The notes under the pieces were generated by a model, which made no database searches, was not told where the DNA came from, and saw nothing but the letters and a program-made list of their open reading frames with translations. From assembly GCA_038226905.1 (NCBI GenBank), contig JBBRQE010000001.1, positions 1,392 to 65,391 on the forward strand: DNA of 64,000 nt. Reading direction: 5' to 3'. The stretch is from Chthoniobacterales bacterium (lineage in GTDB: Bacteria; Verrucomicrobiota; Verrucomicrobiia; Chthoniobacterales; UBA10450). The position numbers were made by a program, and so were the translations under genes. Positions 1-16,250 of this stretch are shown here, in pieces. The stretch's first letter is position 1. Every line of letters begins with the position of its first letter.

Positions 1-2
1 TG

Positions 3-233
3 GAACGGCGCCGGCCCAAAGGCGAAACGGAACATGTCATCTTTTACTGCGATCGTTGCCAGGGTCTGGTCGAGGATATCGAGTTCGATTGCGCTGACAT
101 CGTCGAGCATTTCAGCCGGGCCATGCTCGAGTTCTGGAAGGACGACGTCCGGCGGATTTGCAAGCAGTGCGGAGCCAAAGTGGAAAAACCCGAGCCGGTC
201 AAGCCGTTTGCAGAAGTGACGAGTGGCCAGTGA
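3..233 (+). CDS. nbaC: 3-hydroxyanthranilate 3,4-dioxygenase, C-terminal fragment (5' end lies outside the window)
   Basis: Frame 3 is open from the window edge to TGA 231-233. It reads ...ETEHVIFYCDRCQGLVEDIEFDCADIVEHFSRAMLEFWKDDVRRICKQCGAKVEKPEP. The paired CxxC...CxxC rubredoxin-like tail is typical of bacterial HAO. It is absent from the ORF track because it has no in-window start. ACMSD follows 57 nt downstream. Confidence 0.7.
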   Translation, partial: ERRRPKGETEHVIFYCDRCQGLVEDIEFDCADIVEHFSRAMLEFWKDDVRRICKQCGAKVEKPEPVKPFAEVTSGQ

Positions 234-289
234 CGAGTTTCGTAGGGCAAGGCGTGGTTTCTTGTCACTAATCACTCGTCACGTCCTCT

Positions 290-1330
290 ATGAAGATCGA
301 TCTGCACACCCATATCCTTCCGCACGACTGGCCGGACCTGGACGCGCGCTACGGCTATTCCGGGTTCGTTAGGCTGGATCATTACAAGCCTTGTTGCGCC
401 CGCATGATGAAGGGCGGCGCTGTTTTTCGCGAGATCTCCGACAACGTCTGGGATCCCCGGCGTCGCATCGAGGAGTGCGACCAGAACGGCGTGGGCCTGC
501 AAGTTCTCTCCACCGTCCCGGTCATGTTTAGTTATTGGGCAAAACCGAAAGACACGCTCGATCTTTCGCGCCGTCTGAATGATCACATTGCCGAAGTGGT
601 GCGAACTTATCCCACCCGATTTACCGGGCTTGCCACCATTCCGCTACAGGACCCGGAGATGGCGGCGGGCGAGCTGGAACGTTGCGTGAAGGAACTTGGC
701 CTGCGCGGAGCGGAGATCGGGACACACGTCGATGCCAATACCCACCTGGGTCGGACGGAGTCCCTCAATCTGGACGACGTATCGTTAGACCCTGTCTGGG
801 GCGCAGCCGAGCAATTGGGCGCGGCCATTTTCGTCCATCCGTGGGACATGGCGGGGAAAGAGCGGATGCCGAAGTTCTGGCTTCCCTGGCTGGTGGGCAT
901 GCCGGCCGAAACTTCCCTGGCCATCTGTTCCATGATGTTCGGCGGCGTCTTTGAACGCTTTCCGAAGTTGCGCGTGGCCTTCGCCCACGGCGGCGGGTCT
1001 TTTCCCTTCACGGCCGGCCGGATCGAGCACGGATTCCAGGTGCGCCCGGACCTGTGCGCCACGGTGAACAAGGTTAGCCCGGCCGATTACCTGGCGGGCG
1101 GAGGAAAACCGGCTCGCTTCTATGTCGACTCGTTAGTCCACCATCCCGAGGCCTTGCGCCTGCTCCTCAAACTTTTCGGAGCGGAACGGATCGCGCTCGG
1201 CTCCGATTATCCGTTCCCTCTGGGGGAAGCGCGCCCTGGCCAATTGATCGAGTCGATGGCGGACCTGCCGGCGGAGGACAAGGATCGTCTTCTTTCCGGA
1301 ACGGCGCGGGAATTCCTCGGTCTAAGCTGA
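290..1330 (+). CDS. nbaD: 2-amino-3-carboxymuconate-6-semialdehyde decarboxylase (ACMSD, amidohydrolase_2 family)
   Basis: 346 aa. N-terminal metal motif [11 protein letters not shown], internal FVHPWD and AFAHGGG, C-terminal [10 protein letters not shown]. Length and motifs fit ACMSD, and it sits next to HAO. Confidence 0.8.
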
Positions 1331-2944
1331 AGCCACCGGCTCGATGGCCGGCTCGGCCGCGACCGATACGGGCTCCGGCGCAACGGCCGGTTGCGTCATG
1401 CCGTAGTTGTTTTGCCGCGAGGTCTCTTCGCGCGCGCCCCAGGACCGCCACCCTTCCGTCAGTTCAAGCCATGCCCACTTCAGTATCGGTCGAAACAGCT
1501 TTTTCATATCGCCGCGGTCGAGGGTGAACCCTGGAATGAGGCATCGGTTTCCACGGTTCGTTTTACCGAGCGCATGGTCCCGCCGACGGCGCCGCGCGAT
1601 GGCAGCAAAGCGGCGGTTGTAAAGGCGCATGCCCTGGAAAACCGGGCGCGACAACGGACTGTTAAACGGCGGCTCCAGCAGGGCGCGCGGTCCCAATTTG
1701 AAAGGCTGCGAAACAATCCCGAGATAATAAAATCCCAGATCAAGACGGAATGCCATGCTCATCAAATCCCATTCGCCGATGTAATCGTATTTGTTTTTAT
1801 AAACAGCGTTGAACCACGAATGATAACTCTGGCTGAACTCGCGATTGTGCCGCGCGATCGATTCCGTTAACGCTTCTCCGCGCTGTTGCCGGCTGATGAG
1901 ATCCACGCCCGCGCTCGCCGTGAAAGCAATCCAATCCATCCCGGGACTGTAAAACGGATCAAGAAATCCGGCGGCGTCGCCCACCAGAACAAAGCCATCG
2001 CCAGCCGTGGTCGTGCTGTAATAGGCAAGATTCCGCCGCCAATGCACATCGCCCTCATCGAACTCTGCGTCCGCAATCATTTCGCGGCCCACCGGATGTT
2101 GCATGAGAAAGCTCTTCAGGCGTTCGCCGATTTTCCCGCCTTCCTGCGGCCATGTTACCTGACGCTGATCGAAGACGACGCCCACGCTCACATCCCCGCC
2201 TTTCAACGGAATCCACCAACTCCACCAGCCATCGCCCATGACGTGGTTGGTGGCCGTGTTGCGCACGGAATGAATGGCGGCGTCCCACTCGGGAAATTTC
2301 TGAGCCAGCTCAAGACTGTCCCAGTCCTGCACGCCTTTCCAACGGGCCCACGCCGCCGCGGTGGGGTGCTCGCTGTTTTGGCGCCACCAGCCCTGCTTGT
2401 GCGCGAGCAGGGCGCCGACCCCGGAAGCGTCCACCACCCAACGCGCGTGAATCGTTTCGGTCACCTCGCCACTGCGAAGCGAGACAGTCTGGTCGCCTCC
2501 AGGGGAAAGATCCACACTCGTCACGCTGGCCGGACGCCGCAGCTCCGCGCCCGCCGCGCAGGCTCGGCGCAGCACTTCTTCATCGAGGGTGGCGCGGTCC
2601 AGTAGGTAAGAAGGCAGCCGCACCTGGTAGCGCCCGCCGAGTTCGCTCGCCTCGCCCATCGACTGCGTCTCGTCATTACTGAACCAAAAGCGCAGCCCCT
2701 GTTTGACCAGATGTTCTTCGTTAAGATACTTCGTTAGGCCAAGAATACGTCCGAGAAAAAAAGCGCTTACCTCCACGGTGGCTTCCCCCACCCGTCTCGA
2801 AAGTTTGGCGGACTTTTCAATAATGAGGAGACGGAGTCCGGGATTCTGCCGCAAAAGCAGAAGGGCGGTGGAGGCACCGTAGAGCGCGCCGCCAATGACA
2901 ACCACATCGTAGGAGGTCTCTAGCTCCGCAGTCATTGTGTCCAC
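1322..2944 (-). CDS. FAD-dependent oxidoreductase, flavin-dependent halogenase-like (copy 1)
   Basis: 540 aa. GxGxxG ([12 protein letters not shown]), Lys81 in HLVKQGLRF, WxWxIP (GWWSWWIPL) and FxxPxxSxG (FLDPFYSPG). Its 3' end overlaps the ACMSD 3' end by 9 nt (convergent). Confidence 0.7.
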
Positions 2945-3076
2945 TCCGGGAGAATATGCGGGGCGGGCGCGCTGGCAATTAAACTCACAGGCGGCCCCGG
3001 GTCACCGAACCGCCAGCTGATGGAACATTACAAAAATCTGAGGGAACGGGCGCTTGCCCAATTACACATTGGACGC

Positions 3077-3098
3077 GGGCGATTGGGGTCAATCGCCC
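3077..3098. repeat. Perfect 9-bp hairpin GGGCGATTG-GGGT-CAATCGCCC, member of a recurring post-stop hairpin family
   Basis: Read directly from the sequence. It lies 8 nt 3' of the antiporter stop codon (3107-3109, minus strand). Near-identical copy at 22621-22641. No T-run follows. Confidence 0.7.
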
Positions 3099-3106
3099 CT
3101 ACCTGA

Positions 3107-4384
3107 TTAATCTTGAGAGACATCCGCGGTAGAATGCGCGCCGCTGCCCACCAAGCGTTCAAAGAGCGGTGATGCCATAAGGGTGGTGATGACCGCCATG
3201 ACGACCAGCGCGGCAAAGAGCCCTTCTGAAATGACACCGCGCTGCAGGCCGATATTGATAATGATCAACTCCATCAGTCCGCGCGCGTTCATCAGGGTGC
3301 CGATCCCAAGGGCTTCGCGATTCGGGATGCCGGTGGCGCGCGCCGCCAGCCAACAGGCCACTCCCTTGCCCAGCACGGCGGCCAGCAGCACCGCGCCGCA
3401 CATGGCCCAGAGAAACGGCGTGTTGAGCAGCCCGATCCGGGTGTTCAACCCCGAGTAGGTAAAGAACAGCGGGAGAAGCAACGCCACGGTGAGCGGTTGT
3501 ATTCTCGCACACATATCCCGGCCGACGATGCCGCGCGGCATGGCCGCGCCCATGACAAATGCGCCGAAGACTGCGTGCAATCCGATCAGGTCAGTGAACC
3601 ACGCCCCCAGCGCCATGAAAGCGAGCCCCACCATTAACCCCGTCTCGCTCAGACTCCCATCTCTGACCAATCTAGCCTGGTACCGCCCAAAAAGGGGTCG
3701 CACCACACTCAAAACAAAAATCACGTAAGCCGCGCCGCCCCCAATGTTCAGCAGAGCGTGTCCCCAATTATTTTCGAAACTGGCCAGGACAACCGCGAGC
3801 AGGCACCAGGCTGTGGCATCGTTAATCGCACCCGCTCCCAGCGCCACCGTGCCCATGGTAGTCCCTGCCAGTTTTTTAAACTGGATAATCCGCGCCAACA
3901 TGGGAAACGCGGTGATGCACATGGAGGCACCGAGGAAAAGCGCCGCCTCGCCCAGCGTGGTTTTTTTTGGAAAGAGATCGGTGGAACAAAAAAGAATCCA
4001 AGCCAGACCGGCGCCCAGTAGGAAGGGAGCGACCATCCCTGCGACGGAAACAGCAATCGCACTTCGCAAGTTTTTCCGGATGACATCGACCCTGAATTCC
4101 ATCCCGACGACGAACATGTAAAGCGCGAGCCCGAGCTGGGAAGCGGGAAAGAGATAACTCTGCGTGTCGCGCGACTGCTGAGTGCCATCCCAGGGAAAGA
4201 GCCAGTGCTGCGCTTCCGGCCAGAGAACCCCGAAAAGGGAAGGCCCGAGCAACACGCCTGCCACCATTTCGGCAACCACTTGCGGCTGGCCAAACCGCAG
4301 GGCCACCGCGCCAACCAGCCGGCAAAAGAGCAGGATGACCGCGAGTTGCAGAAAGAATTGAACGGCAAGATGCAGGTTGTTCAT
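3107..4384 (-). CDS. Cation:proton antiporter (CPA2 / Kef-type Na+/H+ exchanger family)
   Basis: 425 aa, polytopic. N-terminus MNNLHLAVQFFLQLAVILLFCRLVGAVALRFGQPQVVAEMVAGVLLGPSLFG is the typical CPA2 start, with about 12 hydrophobic segments. Confidence 0.75.
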   Translation of the reverse strand: MNNLHLAVQFFLQLAVILLFCRLVGAVALRFGQPQVVAEMVAGVLLGPSLFGVLWPEAQHWLFPWDGTQQSRDTQSYLFPASQLGLALYMFVVGMEFRVDVIRKNLRSAIAVSVAGMVAPFLLGAGLAWILFCSTDLFPKKTTLGEAALFLGASMCITAFPMLARIIQFKKLAGTTMGTVALGAGAINDATAWCLLAVVLASFENNWGHALLNIGGGAAYVIFVLSVVRPLFGRYQARLVRDGSLSETGLMVGLAFMALGAWFTDLIGLHAVFGAFVMGAAMPRGIVGRDMCARIQPLTVALLLPLFFTYSGLNTRIGLLNTPFLWAMCGAVLLAAVLGKGVACWLAARATGIPNREALGIGTLMNARGLMELIIINIGLQRGVISEGLFAALVVMAVITTLMASPLFERLVGSGAHSTADVSQD

Positions 4385-4459
4385 GAAAGTGGCTGACGAG
4401 GTCTAGCGACTGGACTCAGTTCAATCCAGACGAAAGCCAGACCGGTTGAGCCCGGCGGG

Positions 4460-5764
4460 TCAGACCCCGGCTGAAATGGATTCCGGCACGGGTTCCTCAA
4501 CTCTCTGCGGAACAAGCGAAAGTCTGGGCGAAAGAGCCACAAAACGCTGCAGCCTGACGAACAAATAAAACAGCCACATGCGCCACCTGATGGCAAAGGT
4601 GGCGCCTTCGTTGCCGGCCAGCACGGAATTCACAGCCGGCGCGATTTGCAGCATATTTGTGGGGTTAAGAAACACCTCCATGAATTCTTTGCCGCTGTAC
4701 CAGGCGGTCACGAAGGTTAGGTAGGTGTCCATGACGCGATTCAAGGTGCGCGCATAGCGTTTAAAGAGGCGGGGCCCGAGCGATTCATCATCCAAAACCC
4801 GGTCGAGCGCATCGGCCGCTTTCTCGGCCGATCCGATGGCGAGAAAAACGCCGCTGCTAAAGACCGGGTCGATAAACCCCGCAGCGTCGCCCACCAGCAG
4901 CCAGCGCTCCCCATAAAGGGGGGCGTTCCGGTAGGAGTAATCACCCGCGGAATGAACCGGCGTAACCCTCTCTGCTCTCGTCATTTTCTCCAGCATCATC
5001 GGCTGCTCATTGATGCATTGATCAAGAGCGGCCTCGGGAGACAACTTCATGGTCCGAAACGTAGAGGTGTCCATGACCACCCCGACACTCATGCGCGTCG
5101 GCGAGAGCGGAATCATCCAGAACCAGCGGTCCAGCCCGCGCACCATCCGGATCAGGGTGCCATCGATGCCATCCGGGCGATCGACGTTTTCATAATGCGC
5201 GAAGAGGGAGAACTTTTGCAGATGCTCGTAAGATTTCTTCAACTGGAAGAAATTTCCGACCACTGTCTGCCGTCCGCTGCAATCGAGCAGGTAAAGGGCC
5301 CGCACGACGGAGGAGCCGCGCCCAGCCGTTTCCACGTTCAGCTCGACCCCATCTCGGCCAAACGAAATGCCGTTAACCGTTGTTTCCTCTCGCACTTCCG
5401 CGCCGTTCTCGCGCGAGTGATCGAGCAAAAGCTGATCGAATTCAGAGCGCGTCACCTGATAGGAGCGGTCGCGACGGGAGCGAAATCCGTCTTTGAAATA
5501 AAACTTAATGTCTTTCGATCCACAGGCCGCCACGATTTGGCCGCCATGTTTGGGCATAAAGGCACGGTCCAGTTTTTCGCGCACCCCGAGGCGATCAAAA
5601 GCCTGCAGGCTGAAAGGGAGAAGAGATTCACCAATATGAAAGCGAGGGAACTTTTCCCGCTCCAGAACTACGACCCGCCTCCCGACTCGGGCGAGCAGCG
5701 TGGCTGCCGTGCTGCCGCCAGGTCCGCCCCCGATAATGGCTACGTCGTAGATTTCCGAGGTCAT
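4460..5764 (-). CDS. FAD-dependent oxidoreductase, flavin-dependent halogenase-like (copy 2)
   Basis: The ORF is open to 5926, but the ATG at 5764 (MTSEIYDVAIIGGGPGGST) gives a normal N-terminus and removes the overlap with kynA. 434 aa. Lys72 in FMPKHGGQI, WxWxIP (RWFWMIPL), FxxPxxSxG (FIDPVFSSG). Starts 17 nt after the kynA stop. Confidence 0.7.
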   Translation of the reverse strand: MTSEIYDVAIIGGGPGGSTAATLLARVGRRVVVLEREKFPRFHIGESLLPFSLQAFDRLGVREKLDRAFMPKHGGQIVAACGSKDIKFYFKDGFRSRRDRSYQVTRSEFDQLLLDHSRENGAEVREETTVNGISFGRDGVELNVETAGRGSSVVRALYLLDCSGRQTVVGNFFQLKKSYEHLQKFSLFAHYENVDRPDGIDGTLIRMVRGLDRWFWMIPLSPTRMSVGVVMDTSTFRTMKLSPEAALDQCINEQPMMLEKMTRAERVTPVHSAGDYSYRNAPLYGERWLLVGDAAGFIDPVFSSGVFLAIGSAEKAADALDRVLDDESLGPRLFKRYARTLNRVMDTYLTFVTAWYSGKEFMEVFLNPTNMLQIAPAVNSVLAGNEGATFAIRWRMWLFYLFVRLQRFVALSPRLSLVPQRVEEPVPESISAGV

Positions 5765-5781
5765 CAACCTGCTCCTCGTCG

Positions 5782-6567
5782 TTACATCAGGCGGCGGATG
5801 GCCCATAAATCCGGGAAGATGGGATTGAAGAGCGATTGCTTGAGGAAAGGCACGCCCGGCGACCCGCCTGTGCCGGTCTTCGCACCGATCGTCCGTTCGA
5901 CCAGTTTGATATGGCGGTAACGCCATTCCTGGAGACCCTCGTCAAAATCGGTCATTAACTCCAAGAGGATGGAGACTTCCGGCGACTCTCGATAGAGCCG
6001 CATAATCTCGCTCTGGATCTGCTCGTTAGGCTGGTTCGGCTCGGTCAGGTCGCGCTTCCTTAGCTCGGGCGGAATCGAGGCCCCGCGGGTTTCCAGGAAA
6101 TCGTAAAAATGATCGATCACGCTACGCTCATCCCGCCGGCGCTCCAACCGGTCGTAGCCAAGCATGTCCGGCTTTAGATATTGAAAGGTGACGGCCCGTT
6201 TGTAGCCCAGCAGAAATTCCAGCTCGCGAAACTGAATCGACTGAAATCCCGAGGCCGTATCGAGCCGGTCGCGAAAACTGGAGAAGGAGGATGGGGTCAT
6301 GGTCTCAAGGATATCAATCTGACCGACCAGCGTCTTCATGATGGTGCGCGCACGCTTGAAAGAGTGAATGGCGTCGAACAGCTTGCCCGCGGAAAAGTCT
6401 TTTTTAATTCGGTCGAACTCGTGCAGCAACTGCTTGAACCAGAGCTCGTAGGTTTGATGGATGATGATGAAAAGCATCTCGTCGTGCTCGGCCGGCGTGG
6501 AGCGCGGGTTCTGCAGCGTGAGCAGTTTCTCCAGATCGAGATAGTTCGCGTAAGTCAGGGGCGGCAT
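5782..6567 (-). CDS. kynA: Tryptophan 2,3-dioxygenase
   Basis: 261 aa. LTYANYLDLEKLL, HQTYELWFKQ, SGFQSIQFRELEF, WRYRHIKLVERTIGAKTGTGGSPGVPFL. All are hallmark TDO blocks. Confidence 0.9.
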   Translation of the reverse strand: MPPLTYANYLDLEKLLTLQNPRSTPAEHDEMLFIIIHQTYELWFKQLLHEFDRIKKDFSAGKLFDAIHSFKRARTIMKTLVGQIDILETMTPSSFSSFRDRLDTASGFQSIQFRELEFLLGYKRAVTFQYLKPDMLGYDRLERRRDERSVIDHFYDFLETRGASIPPELRKRDLTEPNQPNEQIQSEIMRLYRESPEVSILLELMTDFDEGLQEWRYRHIKLVERTIGAKTGTGGSPGVPFLKQSLFNPIFPDLWAIRRLM

Positions 6568-6680
6568 GGATCACGATACTAGAAGCTGAATCACGCGCCC
6601 GAAAAGACTTCTCTCCGCAGCCCGACCCGAAGGGGGAGAGCCAGCTCATCGACCTTGAAGGAGAGTCCGCGGACTCCCCA

Positions 6681-7124
6681 TCACTCCGTGCGCAGCGCTT
6701 GCAATGGACTGACGAGGGTCGCCCGGCGCGCCGGGACGACACAGGCGACCAGAGCAGCCAGTGCCAGAATTATCGCGGTGGCCCCGAGCAGGAGCGGATT
6801 GTGCGGCGAAATTTGGTAAAGCTGCGCGGTAAGCAGGCGGCCAACGGCAATTGTCGCCCGCCACTCTGGGCACGAGTGCGACCGTCCAAAGCGCCAGACA
6901 AACGCCGGCGGCGCCACCTCGTTCTGATGTCCGACCAGCATCCATTGAGTCGCAAAGATGGTTTCCCGTTCCTTGGCAAAGACCTCCGGAGCGACAAAAT
7001 ATCGCTGCGGCAGAGCCTGCGCATCGCGCGGGGAACGCTTCGAGACCGTTGCGTGGTCGAGCTCCCGATGGTGTCTGTATTCGCGCCCGCGGAATTTGTT
7101 GACCTGCCAGCCGGAGTCCACCAT
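6681..7124 (-). pseudogene. Chimeric remnant: 5' fragment of a Rieske-type oxygenase alpha subunit fused to the 3' end of an FtsX/MacB-type ABC permease
   Basis: The N-terminal half (ALPQRYFVAPEVFAKERETIFATQWMLVGHQNEV) looks like a ring-hydroxylating oxygenase N-terminus, but it ends before any CxH...CxxH Rieske motif. The last ~50 aa (AVGRLLTAQLYQISPHNPLLLGATAIILALAALVACVVPARRATLVSPLQALRTE) look like the extreme C-terminus of an FtsX-family permease. Confidence 0.5.
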
Positions 7125-7144
7125 GGGCGGGCCGACGGTAATTT

Positions 7145-7588
7145 CTATTTCAGGACCGCCTGATGGAAGGCATGCCAGTCATCAAGATTGTTCAGGTTAA
7201 TCGCGTCTTGCGGAGCGGAGGCGACATCGTCCATTCCGTTGGCCCGCAGAATGGTCCGGCGAGTGGCGTCTTCATGAATGTAACCGCGCACGGAAGCGTT
7301 ATGCTTCTCAATGGCTTCGGGGGTTAGCGATCTGGCATTCTTCTTAATCCACGCTTCGAATTCGGGATAGGTCGGTTTGTCCTGCTTGATAAATCCGATT
7401 ACCGCCTGGTCCTCGAGCCCAAGCGCAGCGCATGTCATCGCATCGTAGCCACTGCCCAGACCGTGATAGCCGGGAGCAAGTTTCCCCGCCGCTTCCAAAG
7501 AGGTTTTTTGCCAGAGACGAGGAAGATGAAGAACGCCGAGTGGTCCGGCCGTGCCGGAACTGATTAGCGGGACGAAAGTATTAGTCAT
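7145..7588 (-). CDS. Conserved hypothetical protein, DUF5069-like
   Basis: 147 aa. GVLHLPRLWQKTSLEAAGKLAPGY...AALGLEDQAVIGFI resembles my recollection of the DUF5069 pattern (HLPR..DK..L...G.L..Y). The family assignment is from memory only. Confidence 0.5.
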   Translation of the reverse strand: MTNTFVPLISSGTAGPLGVLHLPRLWQKTSLEAAGKLAPGYHGLGSGYDAMTCAALGLEDQAVIGFIKQDKPTYPEFEAWIKKNARSLTPEAIEKHNASVRGYIHEDATRRTILRANGMDDVASAPQDAINLNNLDDWHAFHQAVLK

Positions 7589-7793
7589 GGTGTTGGTTTG
7601 AAGGTCTACATTCCCACGGGGAAGCGAAATACGGAAGTGAGATTGTTAAGGGTAATGAGCCGAAGCTATCAAAAGACAATTCAATTCACCAGGGATTGAT
7701 CGTCGCACAGCGCAGGGCCGGGCGTGGACCCGAAGCGGCCGCTCCCAGAAAGGCTCGCGTTGTATTCCAACGCAGGCAGGACGACGCTTCGGC

Positions 7794-8573
7794 ATGCGCA
7801 TCCGCGTCTTTTTCCTTCTCCTCGCGATTGGCCTAACCAGTTGGTGGACGGAAGCGATCGCCCAACCCACACGCATTTCAGCAGATTTCTTCAAATCCGG
7901 CGATCGCCGCATTGCGGTTGCTCATTTTACGCCGGCGGCGGGCGTGGCGGTTCGCCGCCACGCGGTGGTCTTGTACGGAGCGGGTGGAATTATTCTCGAC
8001 GGCCCCCGGATGCGTCGCGTCGCGCAGGCCCTGGTAGAGGACGGTTACGACGTTTCTCTCATTCATTATTTCAATCGGACCGGGACGTTGTTTGGACGCG
8101 ACAAAAACATGCAGCAGAACTTCGAGGCCTGGCTGGATACGGTGCGTCAGGGCATTGCCCGCATCCGATCGGGCGACGCGCGCCACCGATCGGTTTACGT
8201 CTACGGTTATTCGCTGGGCGCTTTTCTGGCGGTGGCCGCCGCTTCCGACAATGGCGGAGTTGCGGCGGTGGCCGAACACGCGGGTGGTATCTGGAACAAC
8301 CAAAAAAAACGCATCGGACGAATGCCGCCTGTTTTGATGATTCATGGCCAGATCGACCAGCGCGTTCCTCTGGCTCAATACGCGCGACCGTTACGGGCGG
8401 AGCTGCGCCGAAAAAAAGGAGGCGCGACGACCCACTTCTATGCGCACGAGGGTCACGTCTTTTCGAAGTCTGCGCTCGTTCAAGTTCAGCGCGAAGTCCC
8501 GCAGTTTTTCGATTCGATACCAAACCGCGGGCTCGGCGAACTTCCTTCAACGACCGGTCCAGCCAAGAAATAG
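7794..8573 (+). CDS. Secreted alpha/beta hydrolase (dienelactone-hydrolase-like)
   Basis: 259 aa. Signal peptide MRIRVFFLLLAIGLTSWWTEAIAQP, nucleophile elbow GYSLGA, C-terminal IHGQIDQRVP and HEGHVF. The 3' end overlaps the KMO 3' end by 27 nt (convergent). Confidence 0.65.
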   Translation: MRIRVFFLLLAIGLTSWWTEAIAQPTRISADFFKSGDRRIAVAHFTPAAGVAVRRHAVVLYGAGGIILDGPRMRRVAQALVEDGYDVSLIHYFNRTGTLFGRDKNMQQNFEAWLDTVRQGIARIRSGDARHRSVYVYGYSLGAFLAVAAASDNGGVAAVAEHAGGIWNNQKKRIGRMPPVLMIHGQIDQRVPLAQYARPLRAELRRKKGGATTHFYAHEGHVFSKSALVQVQREVPQFFDSIPNRGLGELPSTTGPAKK

Positions 8574-9887
8574 CAGAACCGATAGCGCAAGAAGCAGTGT
8601 GACGACGGCGCCTAGACTGGCGAAGACGATCCGATCCTGCCAGCGGGCGCGGCGCGCCGCTTCGGAATAGGGAATTTGGGTAAAAGAGATCATGGCGTAA
8701 AGCGGCAGGTAAAGACCTGGGAGGGCGCCCTCGAGGGCGTGATCCAGCTTCTTTTTCGCACGAAAGAGAGGCGAGGCCGTTTTGTCGCGCATCTCGATGA
8801 AGTTCGAGACGGCGAGTTCCGCCAGGGCATCGGCGTTTTCTTTCCGCCGACGATAGTATTCCGCAAAAGCGTGCTCCCGACTATCCGGGAACTCGGCCAG
8901 GCAGCGGTCGAGCACGACACAATCTTCGAAAGCCGCGTTCATCCCCTGGCCATAAAACGGAACCACGGCATGCGCGGCATCGCCTACGAGCGCAACTTTG
9001 TCCTTATAGTTCCAGGGAGAACAACGAATCGTCACAAGCGAACCAGTCGGATTTTCGTTATACTCCTCCAGCAGCGCAGGCATAAGAGGGACGGCGTCGG
9101 GAAATTCTTCGTCGAAAAATCTTCGCACATCGTCGTCGTTCCTAGTCGATTCGAAACTACGCGGTCCTTTGAACTCCCAGAAGAGCGTACAGGTAAAAGA
9201 GCCGTCGGGGTTGGGCAGCGCGATCATCATGAAACTTTTGCGCGGCCAGATGTGGAGGGCCTCTTTCTCCATGCGCCACCTGCCCTCGGCGGTGGGCGGA
9301 ATGGTTAGTTCCTTGTAGCCATGGGCGAGGTAATTCTCGTCCTCTTCGAAATTTTTCAGACGCCGCCGCATTGATTCCCTCACCGCGGAAAAGGCGCCAT
9401 CAACGCCGATCACGGCATCGCCCGAAGCGGTCATCGATTGAGACGTTGAGGTATTGAGAAGATGAGCCGCGGCCGACTCCAGATCGACGTCCGTGCAACG
9501 GTGATTAAAATGCACACGCACATTGGGGTAACGCTGCGCCGCCTCCAGCACGGCGGTGTTGAGAGCGGCCCGGCCGATCGAGCTGATATATTTGGCGGGA
9601 TCCCGATCGTAGGGAGCGAAATGCAGCTCTCCCGATTTGTGGTGGATCATACGGCCGCGCATGGGGATGGCTTCTTGCATGACGATGTCCGCTAGCCCCA
9701 GTTGCGCGAGCGCGTGAATTCCGCGCGCCGAGAGGGCAAGATTAATCGACCGACCGCCCACGAAGTTACCGGCCCGCGGATCCGCCCGTCGTTCGAACAA
9801 CTCTACCTGGTCGCCCCGCCGTCCCATGTAGGCGGCGAGCAATCCGCCGGCCAGCCCACTGCCGATAAGAGTGAATCGGGTCGACAT
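8547..9887 (-). CDS. kmo: Kynurenine 3-monooxygenase
   Basis: 446 aa. FTLIGSGLAGG dinucleotide fold, RSINLALSARG, GDAAHAVVPFYGQGMN, C-terminal membrane anchor. Typical KMO blocks and length. Confidence 0.85.
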   Translation of the reverse strand: MSTRFTLIGSGLAGGLLAAYMGRRGDQVELFERRADPRAGNFVGGRSINLALSARGIHALAQLGLADIVMQEAIPMRGRMIHHKSGELHFAPYDRDPAKYISSIGRAALNTAVLEAAQRYPNVRVHFNHRCTDVDLESAAAHLLNTSTSQSMTASGDAVIGVDGAFSAVRESMRRRLKNFEEDENYLAHGYKELTIPPTAEGRWRMEKEALHIWPRKSFMMIALPNPDGSFTCTLFWEFKGPRSFESTRNDDDVRRFFDEEFPDAVPLMPALLEEYNENPTGSLVTIRCSPWNYKDKVALVGDAAHAVVPFYGQGMNAAFEDCVVLDRCLAEFPDSREHAFAEYYRRRKENADALAELAVSNFIEMRDKTASPLFRAKKKLDHALEGALPGLYLPLYAMISFTQIPYSEAARRARWQDRIVFASLGAVVTLLLALSVLLFLGWTGR

Positions 9888-10026
9888 TGAGCAGAATAAC
9901 TAACCGCGGATCAGACGGAGATCACGGATATTCCGATGAGCGGCTCTGGCTGACGACCAAATAGGTCGGGCTGGTCGCGCATCGCCCGTTCTTGATGTAG
10001 CCTTCAATTTCCCTACCGAATTACCT

Positions 10027-10200
10027 ATGAAAAAACTTTCGCTTTTACTTGTCGGAACGACTTTCGCCATCGCTCTGGGAGCCTGCCGTTCACACCCAAG
10101 TTCCGAGCAGCCAACAAAAAAAGAGCCACGGCACGCGGGCAAACATAAAGATGATTTTTTCAACACCAGCCCACCACCCCTCGAAAAACCAGGGCAGTAG
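10027..10200 (+). CDS. Small lipoprotein (57 aa, below the ORF-track cut-off)
   Basis: ATG 10027. MKKLSLLLVGTTFAIALGAC-RSHPSSEQPTKKEPRHAGKHKDDFFNTSPPPLEKPGQ, stop 10198-10200. Canonical signal peptide plus lipobox LGAC. Confidence 0.45.
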   Translation: MKKLSLLLVGTTFAIALGACRSHPSSEQPTKKEPRHAGKHKDDFFNTSPPPLEKPGQ

Positions 10201-10213
10201 GCGTGCTCTTCAC

Positions 10214-11491
10214 TCATTCATGCGCCGCCAGAATCCGGGCGAAACGCCAGACCTCGTGGAACGTGTTGTAGAGTGGCGTGGGCGCCGCGCGGATCACGTT
10301 CGGTTCGCGGAAATCGCACTTCACGCCGGCGGCTTCGAGTTTGGCGAAGAGTTCCCGCGGATGTTGCCGGACAAGAATGGAGAGCTGGCAGCCTCGCTCG
10401 CTTGTCCCGCGCGGTGTGATGACGGTAAATAGCTTCGACGGCGCCTCATCCAAAAGAAATTGCAGGTAGCCGGTCAGCTGGACCGACTTGGCCCGCAACG
10501 CGTCGATGCCGCCCGCTTCGTCAAAAAGGGCGAGCGAGGCCCGCAGCGGTGCCATGGAAAGGATCGGCGGGTTGCTGATCTGCCAGGAATCGGCCGACGG
10601 TACGGGCACGAAATCCGGCTTGAGCTGCATACGGAATCTGGTCGCCGGATCGTTGCCCCACCAACCGGCCAGGCGCGGAAGTTCACGATTCGTCGCGTGT
10701 CGCTCATGCACGAATGCGCCCGCCACCGCGCCAGGTCCGGCGTTGAGGTACTTATAGGAACACCACACGGCGAAATCGACATTCCAATCATGCAAGGCCA
10801 GCGGAACATTGCCGGCCGCGTGCGCGAGATCTATGCCCACATGGCAGCCCTGTTTCTGCGCGACCGCGGTGATTCCCTCGATGTCGAACAGCTGACCGGT
10901 GAAAAAATTCACTCCGGCGAATAGGACCAGCGCAATCCCGGCCCCATCCTTTTCTATGAGGGCCTCAATATCCTCCGACCGGAGGGTCAACTCCCCTGCC
11001 CTCGGCCTGGCCAATACGAGTGCGTTGTCCGGATTGAACCCGTGATGGATGATCTGCGATTTGATCGCGTAGGTATCAGAAGGAAAAGCCGGCTCTTCCA
11101 TGAGGATGCGAAAGCGCGCCTGGGTGGGCCGATAAAAAGTGGCCATCATCAAATGCAGATTGACCGTCAGGCTGTTCATGCAGACGACTTCATTTGATTT
11201 GGCACCGACCAGGCGGGCAGTCGGCTCGCGCAATATCTCGTGATACGTGTACCACGGCGTGCGGGCTCCGAGATGCGCGTCTACCGCGAGATTCGCCCAC
11301 TCCTCCAACTCTTCTTCGACCATTAGTCTGGCCGCCTTCGGCATCAGACCGAGCGAATTTCCGCAGAAATAGATGAGCGGCTGGCCATCGGGACCCGGCG
11401 GAAGGTGAAAACGCGCTCTAAACTTCTGCAGCGGATCTTCCGCGTCGCGTTGCAACGCGAAATGTTCGTCGGCGGCGAAGTTGGCGGTCAT
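10214..11491 (-). CDS. kynU: Kynureninase
   Basis: Start set at ATG 11491 (MTANFAADEHFALQRD...). FCGNSLGLMPK, PLP-lysine block WCSYKYLNAGPG, C-terminal REPNVIRAAPTPLYN. Confidence 0.9.
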   Translation of the reverse strand: MTANFAADEHFALQRDAEDPLQKFRARFHLPPGPDGQPLIYFCGNSLGLMPKAARLMVEEELEEWANLAVDAHLGARTPWYTYHEILREPTARLVGAKSNEVVCMNSLTVNLHLMMATFYRPTQARFRILMEEPAFPSDTYAIKSQIIHHGFNPDNALVLARPRAGELTLRSEDIEALIEKDGAGIALVLFAGVNFFTGQLFDIEGITAVAQKQGCHVGIDLAHAAGNVPLALHDWNVDFAVWCSYKYLNAGPGAVAGAFVHERHATNRELPRLAGWWGNDPATRFRMQLKPDFVPVPSADSWQISNPPILSMAPLRASLALFDEAGGIDALRAKSVQLTGYLQFLLDEAPSKLFTVITPRGTSERGCQLSILVRQHPRELFAKLEAAGVKCDFREPNVIRAAPTPLYNTFHEVWRFARILAAHE

Positions 11492-11510
11492 GGAAGAGCT
11501 GCAAACTTTC

Positions 11511-11541
11511 AACGCCCAACGCTCAACGTCCAACGCTCAAT
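11511..11541. repeat. Tandem heptamer element (AACGYYC)x4+AAT, copy 1
   Basis: AACGCCC AACGCTC AACGTCC AACGCTC AAT. Ends 19 nt upstream of the kynU ATG and overlaps the VOC stop codon (11537-11539). 28/31 identical to 12021-12051. Confidence 0.7.
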
Positions 11542-12006
11542 TCGGAGGGAGCGGAGCTGGTTGCATGAACTCTATGGTCGTCCCATCGGGATCGCGGACA
11601 TAGACAACTCGCCTCCCGGCATTGGGGCCGCTCTTGAGAGTTTGCGGTTTGCCCGCCGCGCTCCAGCCGGCCCTGGTAATCGCGCCTAGCACGGCGTCTA
11701 GGTTGTCTACCATGAGAGCCCATGCACCGATCCGGCGTCGCAAGGTTTGAGGTCGGCACGCTTTCGTTCGGGAGGCGCGAGGTACTGCAGTAATTCAATC
11801 CGGTGACCGGGAGCCTTGAGAACGGCGATCAATATCTCAGCGCCGGGCACTCCGGTGACTTCGCTGGCCAGCTCGCCTTGGTGATGGGCGCGGTGAGACA
11901 GCTCGAAGCCAAGAACATCCCGCCAGAAGGCAAGGGACTCTTCGATGTTCGCGACCGTTATGCCGGTGTGGTCAGTTGCCAGGACGCGAAAGGGCTCAGT
12001 GAGCAT
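11537..12006 (-). pseudogene. VOC (glyoxalase/bleomycin-resistance/dioxygenase) family gene split by a frameshift
   Basis: ORF 11707-12006 (..TDHTGITVANIEESLAFWRDVLGFEL..KPCDAGSVH) and ORF 11537-11743 (..AWALMVDNLDAVLGAITRAGW..YVRDPDGTTIEFMQ) are the two halves of one VOC fold in different frames. The junction lies within 11707-11743. Confidence 0.6.
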
Positions 12007-12020
12007 GACTTCTTAGATCG

Positions 12021-12051
12021 AACGTCCAACGCCTAACGTCCAACGCTCAAT
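12021..12051. repeat. Tandem heptamer element (AACGYYC)x4+AAT, copy 2
   Basis: AACGTCC AACGCCT AACGTCC AACGCTC AAT. Ends 14 nt upstream of the VOC ATG (12006). Confidence 0.7.
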
Positions 12052-12121
12052 CAGAGGAAGAAACCGGAATAGCACGGCCTCCAGATCGGGGAGCGTTGGC
12101 TGGCAACCTGTCCTTCCCAGA

Positions 12122-12547
12122 TTAAGCAATTGCCGCGATGACTTTCAGCTCGATGGCGATGGGGGTAGGCAGAGCGCCAACCTCCACCGTGGTCCGCGTT
12201 GGATTCGGCTTGCCCGGTCCGGCGAAATATTCGGGATAGATCCGATTATAGATGGGGAAGTCCTTCTTCATATTGGTGAGGAAGACAGTTACGTCCACGA
12301 TGTCGTTCCAGGTCGCGCCCGCGTCTTCCAGGACGAGCCTGACGTTTTCAAACACGGCGTGGCACTGTTGCCCGATATCGTAGTCAACCATGGCGCCGGC
12401 GGCATCGAGCGTTACGCCGGGGATCTCTTCGCGGCCTCGCTCGCGCGGCCCGATCCCGGATAGAAAAAGAAGATTGCCCACGCGCCTCGCGTGCGGAAAA
12501 GCCCCAATGGGTTCGGGAGCTCGGGAGCTTTCGTAGGATTGACTCAT
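12122..12547 (-). CDS. RidA/YjgF family reactive-intermediate deaminase (candidate 2-aminomuconate deaminase by context)
   Basis: 141 aa. FPHARRVGNLLFLSGIGP, VDVTVFLTNMKDF, PTRTTVEVGALPTPIAIELKVIA. Classic RidA blocks. Confidence 0.8.
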   Translation of the reverse strand: MSQSYESSRAPEPIGAFPHARRVGNLLFLSGIGPRERGREEIPGVTLDAAGAMVDYDIGQQCHAVFENVRLVLEDAGATWNDIVDVTVFLTNMKKDFPIYNRIYPEYFAGPGKPNPTRTTVEVGALPTPIAIELKVIAAIA

Positions 12548-12571
12548 TTCTTAAAGTTCACTGTCGCGCGC

Positions 12572-12667
12572 CTCTTATTCGTATTCGCATTCTTACTCTT
12601 ATTCATATTCGAATAATATCTCGTTAGGCGCAAACATGAGTAAGAATAGGAATAAGAATACGATGAG
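12572..12667. repeat. AT-rich imperfect inverted repeat (27-bp arms, 22/27 complementary, 39-nt spacer) built from triplet-phased ANN units
   Basis: Left arm 12572-12598 is CTCTTATTCGTATTCGCATTCTTACTC. Right arm 12638-12667 is GAGTAAGAATAGGAATAAGAATACGATGAG. The spacer holds the perfect palindrome TATTCGAATA (12606-12615). Lies between the MoaD-like stop and the RidA start. Confidence 0.7.
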
Positions 12668-12672
12668 AAACG

Positions 12673-12969
12673 TCAGCCACCGGCGATGGCGCCCATGATA
12701 AAGAACGGCTCGGCCCCGCTTACGACCGCCTCGGGCAAAGGCGCATCAGGCGAATCGTGCGAGATGTCCTCCGAGCAGGCGAAGAACCGGACGAGCGGCC
12801 GGCGCTGCCGGGTAACGTGATCGCGGATGGTGCCGCGCAGCATCGGGTAGCGGCCCTCCAGAGCATCGAGAATCGATTGCCGCGTCGCCGGGCTTTTGAC
12901 TTCGAGCTGCACTTCATCGCTGACCCTCGCCAGCGTGCGCAAATGTTGGGGCAACACGACCCGGATCAT
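12673..12969 (-). CDS. MoaD/ThiS-like ubiquitin-fold protein with a free C-terminal Gly-Gly
   Basis: Start set at ATG 12969, 98 aa. [24 protein letters not shown]...[11 protein letters not shown]-stop. The ATG overlaps the upstream gene's stop as ATGA (12966-12969). Confidence 0.7.
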
Positions 12970-14153
12970 GGCAGGGTCTGCGCTTCGACGGACAACACAG
13001 CGGGAAGATCGCGCACGATCGGATTCCACGTATCGCCGGCATCGGCTGATCCATAGACCTGCCCGCCGGTCGTGCCGAAGTAGACCCCGCAGGCGTCCAG
13101 TGAGTCGACCGTCATGGCATCGCGCAGGACATTGACGTAGCAATCGCGCTGCGGGAGACCTTTAGTCAGCTCTTCCCACTCGTTACCGCCCGTCCGGCTG
13201 CGATAGACCCGCAGCTTTCCATCCGGCGGGAAGTGCTCGGAATCACTCTTGATCGGCACGACGTAAATGGTTTCCGGCTCGTGCGCGTGAATGTCGATCG
13301 GAAAACCGAAATCGCTCGGCAGATTCCCGCTGACTTCGCGCCACGAATCGCCCGCGTCGTCGCTCCGCATGATATCCCAATGTTTTTGCATGAAGAGGGT
13401 GTTAGGGCGCGATGGATGCATCGCAATATGGTGGACGCAGTGGCCCACCTCCGCGCTGGGGTCAGGCATGAACTCTGAGCGCAAACCGTTGTTAATAGGC
13501 CGCCATGTCCTGGCGCCGTCGTCCGTGCGAAATGCGCCTGCCGCCGAGATGGCGATGAACATTCGCTCCGAGTTTTTCGGATCGAGCAGAATCGAGTGCA
13601 AACACATCCCTCCGGCGCCGGGCTGCCATTTCGGTCCCGTTCCGTGGCCCCTCAGTCCGGCCAGTTCCTGCCACGTCTCGCCGCCGTCGCTCGAGCGGAA
13701 AAGAGCGGCATCCTCAACCCCCGCATAAACCGTACTGGGATCGTCTAACGACGGCTCGAGATGCCAGACGCGCTTGAATTCCCACGGATGTTGCGTGCCG
13801 TCGTACCACATATGGGTCGTGAACGGTTTGCCCGTGGCCGGAGAAATGTCATAAACAAATTTGTTACTATCGCCCTTGGGCGGACCGTCCGGCGGGGCAG
13901 TCGGCTCGCCCGGGACAGTACCCGGCTGCGCCCACGTTTTGCCCCCGTCATCGGAGCGCTGAATGATCTGCCCGAACCAGGCGCTCGTCTGCGACGCATA
14001 GAGCCGGTTCGGATCAACCGGCGAACCCTTGACGTGATAGATCTCCCAGCCGGCGAAATGCGGCCCGCTCACCTCCCATTGTTCGCGACGGCCGTCCGAC
14101 GTCAGGACGAACGCGCCTTTGCGCGTGCCAACCAGCAATCTCACTCCACTCAT
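12966..14153 (-). CDS. BNR/Asp-box repeat beta-propeller protein (sialidase-like fold, no signal peptide)
   Basis: 395 aa with six Asp-boxes: [48 protein letters not shown]. Confidence 0.75.
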
Positions 14154-14299
14154 GGCTTTCTCGTTTTGACCATGACCTTCTTTATCCGCAGGATACGCAA
14201 ACTTACATAGATTTTTTTCTGTCGAGGCTGCTCCGTCGCCTTGATGGCAGACCCGCGCGTCAGGTAGCGGAATGGTAGCAAGCAGGCTCGCGGTGAACC

Positions 14300-15757
14300 C
14301 TACTTTGCGATACAGATATTCTTGGCTTCGGTGAAAAAGCGCAGCGCTTCCAGACCACCTTCGCGACCGACGCCGCTCTGCTTCATCCCGCCAAAAGGAA
14401 CGCGCAAATCGCGCAAGAGCCAGCAGTTTACCCAGACGGTTCCGGTGTGGACCTGTTCCGCGACACGGTGTGCGCGATTCAGGTTTTGCGTCCAGATGCT
14501 GGAGGCCAGGCCGTATTCCGTGTCATTGGCATAACCGATCACCTCTTCTTCATGGTCGAAGGGCGTGATGGTCACGACCGGACCAAAAATTTCCTCGCGA
14601 TTGACTCTGCAACCGACCGGCAAGTCTGTGATGACGGTGGGGGGAAAGAAGTAGCCTTTGCGGCAACGCTCGTTAGGCGGTTTCGCCACTTTCCCGCCGA
14701 GGATGACGTTGCCCCCTTCCTGCCGCGCGAGCTCGACATAAAACTTCACTTTTTCCAGCTGCGTTTGCGAAACGATCGCGCCCTGCTCGGTGGCTGCTTC
14801 CAGCGGGTCGCCCTGTTTGAGCTGCCCAGCCCGGGCCACAAAGCGATCCACGAAGGCGCCATAGATCGAGCGCTCCACGAAAACGCGCGAACCGCAGAGG
14901 CAAATCTGCCCCTGATTGGCAAAGGACGAGCGGAGGCTGCCGGCCAGGGCAGCATCCAGATCGGCATCGGCAAAAACGATGTTGGGATTTTTTCCGCCCA
15001 GTTCGAGGGAGATTTTCTTAAAAAGCGGCGCACCCGCCTCCGCTACTTTCCGACCGGTGACTGTGCCGCCGGTAAAAGAGATCGTCCCAATCTTTTCATG
15101 CGCCGTGATGGAGGCGCCGACCGCGGGTCCGGTGCCCTGCACGACATTGAGGACGCCATCGGGCAAGCCGGCTTCCCGGCAGATCTGGCAAAGAAGGAAG
15201 GCCGTCATGGGCGTCAATTCGCTCGGCTTGGCCACGGCGGTGTTCCCGCAAGCCAGAGCCGGAGCAATTTTCCAGCTCAACAGGTAGAGAGGAAGATTCC
15301 ACGGCGAAATGAGACCGGCCACGCCGCGCGGTTGACGCAAGGTGTAGTTGAAGGCGACCTCGTCCGTGACGTGCGCTTCCGTTTCGGTGTGCAGGATGGC
15401 GGTCGCGAAAAATCGAAAATTGCTGGCCGCGCGGGGGATGTCGAGAGATCGAGCCAGGGCCAGTGGCTTGCCCGTATCGATCGATTCGGCCAAGGCCAGT
15501 TTCTCCAGGTCGCGTTCGATGAAATCAGCGATGCACAGGAGAAAGCGCGAGCGTTCCGAAGCGGATGTGCGCGACCATGTGGCGAATGCTTTCTCAGCCG
15601 CGCTTACGGCAAGGGCGACATCACGGGAATCGCTCTCCGCCACGACGGAATACGGCTTCCCCGTGGCGGGTTCGATGTTATCGATATATTTCCCGCCCAC
15701 TGGTTCGACGAAGCGGCCGTCGATGAAATTTTGAATCTTGACGGGTTCGTTATGCAC
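14300..15757 (-). CDS. NAD-dependent aldehyde dehydrogenase (2-aminomuconate/2-hydroxymuconate-semialdehyde dehydrogenase type by context)
   Basis: The ORF is open to 16099, but the first ~115 aa are Arg/Cys-rich junk. GTG 15757 ([19 protein letters not shown]) gives a canonical 485-aa ALDH. Motifs [16 protein letters not shown], catalytic Cys in GQICLCGSR. Confidence 0.8.
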
Positions 15758-16250
15758 GGGACGGGCAGAGTTTAAACGGCGTTTTCCGATTCGCCAAGGC
15801 GGGCGAAGGCCTTTTGCCGCCCTCCGCCATGCCCAAAGAAATCTCTGCCACTTTCTGATATTCCTACCGGCACCATTGCGATATATACTGGAAAAATGAG
15901 ATACCTTGAAGTCATTGGACTGATCGCTTGTGCCGCCGCGCTGGGTCAGCTGTGAAAGTACCGAGACGGCAGGCAACTCGAATCGCGCGGAAAAGCGTGC
16001 ACGCGCGGACCGCCTGGCCGCACAACAGGCGGGGGCGCGGCAGAGTCCACAGGATGAAGCGCAGCGAAATCTGCAAAATGCGCAAATGAACACCATCAAC
16101 CGCGATGGGAATCCAATGCTCCACGATTAAATAAGAGCCGGCCCTCGGTAGGCGCTTCTCGAAGAGAGGCTGGCCGCGCGACCCGGCTAAACCCGGGCGC
16201 CAACGATTCGGGTTGCACTCTGACGAAGGGACACTAGAATCCGCCGCTCA

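Follow-up and report, generated by a model that had tools for sequence, protein, structure and literature searches.

A conserved halogenase/antiporter module, probably inserted, between kynA and ACMSD in a kynurenine gene cluster of a Chthoniobacterales bacterium

A 64,000-nucleotide (nt) stretch of DNA from a Chthoniobacterales bacterium (the window) carries two flavin-dependent-halogenase-like genes (FDH1 and FDH2) and a CPA2-type cation/proton antiporter gene directly behind kynA, which encodes tryptophan 2,3-dioxygenase. This arrangement raises the question of whether the two enzymes halogenate metabolites of the kynurenine pathway or only reside among its genes. Comparison with related loci (labelled L001 and so on) indicates that FDH1, the antiporter and FDH2 very probably constitute an autonomous halogenase/antiporter module that was inserted into the kynurenine cluster. 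The module probably does not halogenate kynurenine metabolites, and its position at kynA is unusual but probably incidental. The module, its spacers and its flanks are arranged as follows.

3..209, plus strand: HAAO (3-hydroxyanthranilate 3,4-dioxygenase), C-terminal 69 codons; the frame-3 translation is 80% identical to residues 106–174 of the L063 HAAO
290..1330, plus strand: ACMSD (2-amino-3-carboxymuconate-6-semialdehyde decarboxylase); Amidohydro_2, 7.2e-43; E 4e-131 to human ACMSD (4igm/2wm1)
1322..2944, minus strand: FDH2, flavin-dependent-halogenase-like, 540 amino acids (aa) from GTG; Trp_halogenase, 1.5e-14; CmlS model, 96 bits
2945..3106, minus strand: CPA2–FDH2 spacer, 162 nt; one sigma-70-like match (TTGCCA-16-TATTCT, 2978–2951)
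3107..4384, minus strand: CPA2-type cation/proton antiporter, 425 aa; Na_H_Exchanger, 2.1e-55; TIGR00932, 130 bits
4460..5764, minus strand: FDH1, predicted variant B (phenol/pyrrole) flavin-dependent halogenase, 434 aa; Trp_halogenase, 4.4e-28; CmlS model, 209 bits
5765..5781, minus strand: kynA–FDH1 spacer, 17 nt, with a GGAG ribosome-binding site
5782..6567, minus strand: kynA, tryptophan 2,3-dioxygenase, 261 aa; Trp_dioxygenase, 1.8e-58; TIGR03036, 245 bits

The open reading frames (ORFs) place kynA, FDH1, the antiporter gene and FDH2 in this order on the minus strand with gaps of 17, 75 and 162 nt, and they agree in every coordinate, strand and length with a first-pass annotation of the sequence. 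The module is flanked by kynA on one side and by ACMSD on the other. ACMSD pairs with HAAO, which is truncated by the window start and lies outside the module; the pair is convergent on FDH2, and the 3' ends of ACMSD and FDH2 overlap by 9 nt. The true start of FDH2 is likely the ATG at position 2935, three codons later than the GTG, which gives a protein of 537 aa and is used in the public record. An alternative, longer FDH1 ORF extends to position 5926 and overlaps kynA, but the ATG at position 5764 is the better start because GGAG is located 8 nt upstream and most of the listed homologues contain 430–442 aa. A terminator scan finds no terminator-like site in the 17-nt kynA–FDH1 spacer, and read-through from kynA is therefore likely. 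The sigma-70-like match in the CPA2–FDH2 spacer agrees with the consensus at 9 of 12 positions and, as the product of a consensus scan only, is weak evidence. Over positions 1–8000, the scan yields 5 promoter-like sites (2.2 expected from shuffled sequence) and 12 terminator-like sites (9.4 expected), both near expectation.

The proximity to kynA is not conserved among relatives. Among the 80 closest kynA loci from a metagenome scan (64–84% identity), none contains FDH1, FDH2 or the antiporter gene; only three weak FDH1 matches are observed, all of them on KMO genes. In 30 of the 32 loci that have a kynA identity of at least 77% and at least 1.5 kb of downstream sequence, kynA directly faces a convergent ACMSD(-HAAO) with a gap of 28–1332 nt. 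The usual form of the cluster is thus DUF5069-Rieske-kynA facing ACMSD-HAAO without the module, and the three genes in the window therefore represent an insertion at the convergence point in a small lineage. The first-pass annotation had suggested that the enzymes act on Trp, kynurenine or 3-hydroxyanthranilate and had made conserved kynA–FDH adjacency a test of this idea; the adjacency is absent from 80 of 80 loci and orthologues of the same enzymes are found in unrelated contexts, so the suggestion is not supported.

A complementary FDH1 scan with one genome per species gives 60 loci, nearly all from Chthoniobacterales, and only the closest of these, L001, has kynA adjoining FDH1. Look-ups of single homologues added L061, L062, L063 and L068, in which the order KMO ... 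kynA-FDH1-CPA2-FDH2 is convergent with ACMSD-HAAO. The kynA-FDH1-CPA2-FDH2 order is thus found in six loci only, including the window. In four more distant loci (L021, L024, L025 and L026), FDH1-FDH2 abuts ACMSD-HAAO without kynA or the antiporter gene. A neighbour-joining tree of FDH1 places the ACMSD-adjacent copies on basal branches of one clade rather than in a single tip cluster, which indicates that the placement is old.

If the halogenases were instead part of tryptophan catabolism, they would chlorinate or brominate Trp, kynurenine, 3-hydroxykynurenine or 3-hydroxyanthranilate and yield, for example, an HAAO inhibitor or a precursor of a secondary product. The spacing is compatible with this reading, which is nevertheless improbable: the kynA stop is separated from the FDH1 start by 17 nt containing a ribosome-binding site and no terminator-like site, the corresponding gaps are 32–42 nt in L061, L062 and L068, and six loci have the module between kynA and ACMSD-HAAO, with another four in which it is next to ACMSD-HAAO. 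The pathway intermediates are electron-rich anilines and phenols and would be chemically suitable. However, the gap widens to ~300 nt in L063 and L001, so that it is 17–42 nt in four of the six loci. Moreover, the cluster around the module resembles a normal cluster of primary catabolism and NAD metabolism (KMO, kynureninase, HAAO, ACMSD, aldehyde dehydrogenase and RidA), 0 of 80 kynA loci carry the module, and more than 50 loci have the same FDH orthologues in contexts unrelated to kynurenine.

FDH1 and FDH2 are strongly conserved, and the 120 best matches of each are 68–81% identical (those of FDH2 in Chthoniobacterales). The FDH1 family comprises at least 8000 metagenomic proteins at E ≤ 1e-20; at E ≤ 1e-30, the relatives fall into 863 clusters (50% identity), and an exhaustive representative search retrieves 19,904 FDH1 relatives. 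Ten FDH1 relatives that were examined (38–50% identical) do not tie FDH1 to any characterised cluster and, where a source is given, come from uncultured Verrucomicrobia. The FDH1 and FDH2 genes lie side by side in 20 loci, in some cases (L019) with the stop codon of one overlapping the start codon of the other. Three halogenase paralogues with ~25–35% mutual identity occur in Chthoniobacterales, and all three retain the Lys, WxWxIP and FxDPxxSxG motifs. In L069, a metagenome-assembled genome of Chthoniobacter sp., all three are combined with the antiporter gene in a tight operon (FDH3-CPA2-FDH2-FDH1, positions 7228–12906, gaps of 9, 28 and 20 nt) with no kynurenine genes near it. The FDH1-CPA2-FDH2 module is conserved across Chthoniobacterales and changes its genomic context as one unit.

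The CPA2 gene adjoins FDH genes in 11 loci (the window, L001, L002, L004, L008, L036, L061, L062, L063, L068 and L069). Because it accompanies the FDH genes so widely, including in the L069 operon, the antiporter belongs with the halogenases and is not merely interposed. The first-pass annotation had left the antiporter unexplained; its position can now be accounted for by a recurrent partnership with halogenases, in these loci as well as in Azoarcus and Dechloromonas. The protein matches PF00999 over residues 17–407 (188.6 bits) and is a full-length Na_H_Exchanger protein without a regulatory KTN domain. Its TIGR00932 score of 130 bits lies below the cut-off of 238, and its best solved relative is Thermus NapA (4bwz/5bz2, E 3e-16).

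A CLC chloride channel gene with CBS domains is located between KMO and kynA in L061 (1989–3808, fragmented) and L062 (1812–3572). This channel was considered as a halide supplier; being absent from L063, L068 and the window, it is probably not part of the module, although it remains suggestive for halide supply.

Both FDH proteins match the Pfam model Trp_halogenase, and the best NCBIfam model for each is CmlS, with scores well short of its equivalog cut-off of 900 bits. In a phmmer search of PDB sequences, the best match of FDH1 is FasV (8zop, E 5e-55), followed by ChlB4, CndH, Mpy16, PltA, 3nix, CmlS and Bmp2 (to 7e-42); 3nix is an uncharacterised Cytophaga protein. The halogenase matches of FDH1 span E-values of 5e-55 to 4e-32, compared with 3e-14 for a geranylgeranyl reductase and ~1e-8 for monooxygenases. 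The match of FDH1 to PrnA is confined to residues 3–81 (5e-6). FDH2 is more divergent, yet each of its 19 matches among PDB sequences is either a halogenase or 3nix, and no match to PrnA, RebH or Thal is found at E ≤ 1e-3. The AlphaFold models are of moderate confidence (pLDDT 67 for FDH1 and 63.5 for FDH2) and support conclusions at the fold level only. At that level, the top 36 Foldseek hits of FDH1 and the top 40 of FDH2 are all halogenases or 3nix. FDH1 aligns with the FasV/ChlB4/CndH/Mpy16/PltA/3nix/CmlS/Bmp2 set with TM scores of 0.72–0.76 (8zop was identified as FasV), and the identity to solved halogenases in the structural alignments is ~26–32% for FDH1 and ~16–20% for FDH2.

Neither protein exhibits the full-length similarity, including the C-terminal Trp-binding module, that is expected of a tryptophan halogenase. 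By every sequence criterion tested, FDH1 and FDH2 are predicted to be halogenase-family proteins of the PltA/CmlS/CndH type and not tryptophan halogenases. The PDB matches and the Foldseek results thereby bear out an earlier call, made from the motifs, of a PltA/CmlS-type rather than a PrnA/RebH-type affiliation. The result also counts against halogenation within the kynurenine pathway.

The catalytic motifs of halogenases are present in both proteins. FDH1 contains GGGPGG, K72, WFWMIP and FIDPVFSSG, and FDH2 contains K81, WSWWIP and FLDPFYSPG. In the phmmer alignments, FDH1 K72 and FDH2 K81 coincide with K76 of CndH, a position equivalent to PltA K73 and PrnA K79. A joint alignment of the two families (54 sequences, 27% mutual identity) identifies the residues that are invariant in both: K72, E46 of the GES motif, W214/W216/I218/P219 and F297/D299/P300/S303/G305 (FDH1 numbering). 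The WxWxIP motif is thought to bar substrate from the flavin. The catalytic Lys, WxWxIP and FxxPxxSxG motifs that the first-pass annotation had read in both proteins are thus confirmed. Its assignment of a GxGxxG Rossmann motif to both holds for FDH1 but not for FDH2, which has GGALYG (GxAxxG). Members of the FDH2 family keep this motif as GGAL(S/Y)G, typically GGALSG, and not as GxGxxG; the degenerate motif probably still binds flavin adenine dinucleotide (FAD).

Compared with the solved variant B halogenases (CndH 3e1t, PltA 5dbj, Mpy16, Bmp2, ChlB4, CmlS and FasV 8zop), FDH1 has the same fold and size class (~410–450 aa). The catalytic Lys, the Glu of the GES motif, WxWxIP and FxDPxFSSG are shared, and GxGxxG is shared by FDH1 only. 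FDH2 differs by its GxAxxG motif and by a helical C-terminal extension of ~160 residues, which has mixed model confidence, lowest in the last ~35 residues, and for which no similar domain was detected among the solved halogenases. Neither enzyme is orthologous to a characterised one. The window genes also differ from those of the variant B halogenases in their surroundings, with no adjacent carrier protein, polyketide synthase (PKS) or nonribosomal peptide synthetase (NRPS) gene and with the CPA2 antiporter as a partner.

A halogenase fold could also be used for chemistry without halogenation, as hydroxylases or reductases comparable to the QhpG/LodB tryptophan hydroxylases and the geranylgeranyl reductases. 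FDH1 does score against the NCBIfam models of QhpG (146 bits), the geranylgeranyl reductase family (124 bits) and LodB (119 bits), and the Rossmann motif of FDH2 is degenerate. In addition, Daro_4197 of Dechloromonas aromatica is annotated as a 'halogenase/reductase', and the Azoarcus pigment was not reported as halogenated (PMC3949708). Such a function is nonetheless unlikely for the module. The halogenase-specific Lys and WxWxIP do not vary in either family and are kept by the third paralogue, solved halogenases surpass monooxygenases and reductases as matches of FDH1 by 30–40 orders of magnitude in E-value, and halogenases are the only functionally characterised matches of FDH2.

The physical coupling of a halogenase gene with a tryptophan 2,3-dioxygenase gene has a genuine precedent in the taromycin pathway, as the first-pass annotation had noted, and this precedent speaks for halogenation of kynurenine metabolites. 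According to PMC12615548, which cites Luhavaya et al. 2019, the Trp 6-halogenase Tar14 chlorinates free Trp, and the product is then converted to 4-chlorokynurenine (Tar13, tryptophan 2,3-dioxygenase; Tar16, formamidase). The likeness to the window consists in the closeness of the two genes. In contrast to FDH1 and FDH2, Tar14 is a Trp-type enzyme that acts before the dioxygenase opens the ring. Among the scanned ORFs, the window genes have no NRPS, dedicated flavin reductase or kynurenine formamidase gene next to them, and a coupling of the taromycin type that is conserved among relatives is not observed for the window, as the adjacency is absent from all 80 kynA loci.

The substrate of the module is best sought in the other contexts of its genes. 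The explanation preferred here, held with roughly even confidence, is that the module serves the halogenation of an aryl-polyene-type pigment or lipid and landed between kynA and ACMSD in one small lineage. In L067, FDH2 and an FDH3-type gene are located beside genes for an acyl carrier protein (ACP), a ketosynthase (KS), a KS-like protein, an AMP-ligase and a GT2 protein, together with two acyltransferases, a radical-SAM enzyme, a methyltransferase, a polysaccharide deacetylase, an MMPL protein and a LolA-like protein. In L004, L065 and L070, FDH1-FDH2 lies beside genes for a hot-dog/methyltransferase fusion, a small hot-dog protein and a lipid A-type acyltransferase, and a ketoreductase gene is also present in L004 and L065. 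Genes for a small lipoprotein, an MMPL exporter and a LolA-like protein follow FDH1 in 38 loci. Outside this order, an FDH with 36% identity in L059 (Phycisphaerae) is encoded between a XanB2-like chorismatase and an AMP-ligase, in a cluster that also contains KS, ACP, FabA-type dehydratase, acyltransferase and GT2 genes.

Xanthomonadin-like clusters provide a parallel for the pairing with an antiporter. In Azoarcus sp. BH72, the halogenase gene arcA occurs with the Na+/H+ antiporter gene arcG in such a cluster, and in Dechloromonas aromatica the halogenase/reductase gene Daro_4197 occurs with the sodium/hydrogen exchanger gene Daro_4191 (PMC3949708). In Xanthomonas, a halogenase gene is a recognised member of the xanthomonadin clusters, whose products carry zero to two bromines (PMC3691225). 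Judged from gene tables only, the FDH1-CPA2-FDH2 order of the window shows the same co-occurrence of a halogenase and a Na+/H+ exchanger as the arc and Dechloromonas clusters. The window and the xanthomonadin-like clusters (arcA/arcG, Daro_4197/Daro_4191 and XCC4001), likened by description, have in common an FAD halogenase-like enzyme and a sodium/hydrogen exchanger. The arc gene inventory (PMC3949708) also matches the FDH neighbours in related Chthoniobacterales loci (KS, ACP, AMP-ligase, ketoreductase, dehydratase-like, acyltransferase, GT2, MMPL and LolA-like genes). The window differs in that it has no polyketide genes and holds the module inside a primary-metabolism cluster; moreover, xanthomonadin-like clusters have one halogenase, whereas the module has two paralogues and elsewhere three. 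To our knowledge, none of the halogenases of xanthomonadin-like clusters has been characterised biochemically. No useful literature was found on a halogenase with LolA/MMPL, with flexirubin or aryl polyene, or with kynurenine or tryptophan 2,3-dioxygenase.

Several observations weigh against the aryl-polyene assignment. KS, ACP, AMP-ligase and chorismatase genes were not found among the ~40 scanned ORFs of the 64-kb window, whose annotation is not exhaustive, and the substrate pathway is therefore inferred wholly from other genomes; PKS, NRPS, carrier protein and flavin reductase genes are likewise missing from these ORFs, in agreement with the first-pass annotation. The acyltransferase, MMPL exporter and LolA-like carrier genes that adjoin the module elsewhere are absent from the window, and the module often stands alone (L014, L019, L036, L039, L066 and L069). 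The LolA-like neighbour of FDH1 scores best against housekeeping LolA and the MMPL neighbour against hopanoid-transporter (HpnN-like) models of NCBIfam, so the MMPL/LolA-like context could reflect general envelope biogenesis; L067 carries its own, different MMPL and LolA-like copies (28–32% identity). On a Pfam re-scan, an 'ApeI-like' label reached only E 0.004, below the curated cut-off, and an 'ApeP-like' label had no match, although a precomputed table carried the two with no flag of weakness; both labels were dropped and the two genes are treated only as hot-dog or dehydratase-like. We know of no assayed enzyme in the FDH1/FDH2 clade. The Azoarcus pigment has not been reported as halogenated, although arcA is annotated as a halogenase (PMC3949708). 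Finally, the kynA/ACMSD placement survives substantial divergence (six loci and four more beside ACMSD-HAAO), and co-transcription of kynA and FDH1 is plausible from the 17–42-nt gaps in four of six loci. There is accordingly a small chance that the tight kynA–FDH1 coupling and the ten-locus ACMSD-HAAO placement are functional, either with the FDHs acting on an aromatic of the kynurenine pathway (for instance 3-hydroxyanthranilate or 3-hydroxykynurenine) or with a kynurenine-derived aryl acid replacing chorismate-derived hydroxybenzoate as the precursor of an aryl-polyene-like pigment that the module halogenates.

The solitary copies also leave room for a free-standing halogenation system unrelated to aryl polyenes, which would act on another free phenolic or pyrrolic target, such as a small metabolite, a quinone or lipid head group or exogenous soil aromatics. 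This alternative is possible, if on the unlikely side. The four-gene operon of L069 has no biosynthetic neighbours, lone FDH1-FDH2 pairs occur in L014, L019 and L039 and a lone FDH2 in L066, the close solved relatives FasV, RadH and PltM use free phenolics, and the family is very abundant in soil metagenomes. These points are offset by the recurrence of the genes beside acyltransferase, dehydratase, MMPL and LolA-like genes, by the KS, ACP and AMP-ligase genes of L067, and by the precedent for a halogenase with an antiporter within xanthomonadin-like clusters (PMC3949708).

Under the preferred aryl-polyene explanation, both halogenases would be supplied with reduced FAD (FADH2) by a general flavin reductase of the cell and would also consume O2 and chloride or bromide. 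With the enzyme-bound hypohalous acid or Lys-chloramine formed in this way, they would halogenate two positions of an electron-rich aryl ring. The most likely substrate would be the hydroxyphenyl head of a membrane-anchored aryl-polyene (xanthomonadin- or flexirubin-like) polyketide-lipid, either bound to a carrier protein or already lipid-linked, whose synthesis would be encoded in another part of the genome. The antiporter would be an accessory of the halogenation system with some role in ion homeostasis. In the window, the module is probably expressed partly by read-through from kynA across the 17-nt gap, which would be a consequence of the landing site and not of shared chemistry.

The initial attraction of the locus, halogenated kynurenines outside an antibiotic cluster, is largely removed by the comparative genomics, which points to an insertion in a standard cluster. 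Still of interest is a conserved operon that combines two or three phenol-type halogenases with a cation/proton antiporter in Chthoniobacterales ('Spartobacteria'/Candidatus Udaeobacter relatives). Metagenomes contain thousands of near-identical copies from the FDH1 family, many of them from soil, and if active these enzymes could add noticeably to natural soil organohalogen formation. The halogenase–antiporter pairing has been listed in proteobacterial xanthomonadin-like clusters yet never discussed. If the kynurenine-linked reading were true after all, it would represent a new link of tryptophan catabolism to halogenated metabolites in very abundant soil bacteria.

The kynurenine cluster continues upstream of kynA with a remnant region and the following genes, which were assigned with Pfam and NCBIfam models except where another basis is given.

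6684..7025, minus strand: fused remnants, comprising the last 58 codons of a MacB/FtsX permease gene (6684–6857) and codons 19–55 of a Rieske oxygenase gene (6915–7025)
7145–7588, minus strand: DUF5069 protein
7794–8573, plus strand: dienelactone hydrolase (DLH)-type hydrolase
8547–9887, minus strand: KMO
10214–11533, minus strand: kynureninase (TIGR01814, 448.8 bits against a cut-off of 246)
12122–12547, minus strand: RidA
12966–14153, minus strand: BNR-repeat protein
14300–16099, minus strand: aldehyde dehydrogenase
42501–44141, minus strand: glutamine-dependent NAD synthetase (CN_hydrolase and NAD_synthase), 36 kb from the kynurenine cluster

With kynA, KMO, kynureninase, HAAO and ACMSD all together in the window, the cluster is a complete kynurenine degradation/NAD-precursor cluster. 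The catabolic/NAD-pathway setting proposed from the sequence alone is therefore substantiated, including RidA and the aldehyde dehydrogenase. Metagenomic relatives without the halogenase module have these genes (positions 7145–16099) around kynA as well. Among the scanned ORFs, the cluster shows no KynB-type formamidase gene. The DLH-type alpha/beta hydrolase has a signal-peptide-like N-terminus and a counterpart with 65% identity in L063, and it could be the missing kynurenine formamidase. FDH1 was also considered as a missing formamidase or hydroxylase of the pathway and was discarded, since KMO is present and the module is absent from most kynurenine clusters.

A DUF5069 protein gene and a Rieske ring-hydroxylating oxygenase gene are near-constant neighbours of kynA in the kynA-relative loci (L077–L118). 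The MacB/FtsX and Rieske remnants of the window (71% and 65% identity by tblastn) mark a deletion of ~4 kb relative to L063, in which the intact order is DUF5069-Rieske-SnoaL-MacB-kynA. As far as it was scanned, the rest of the window is housekeeping, and the NAD synthetase gene would fit an organism that makes NAD de novo from tryptophan. The ACMSD of the window resembles human ACMSD (E 4e-131) much more closely than it does the Pseudomonas enzyme (E 5e-65), and this eukaryote-like bacterial ACMSD is conserved in these Verrucomicrobia.

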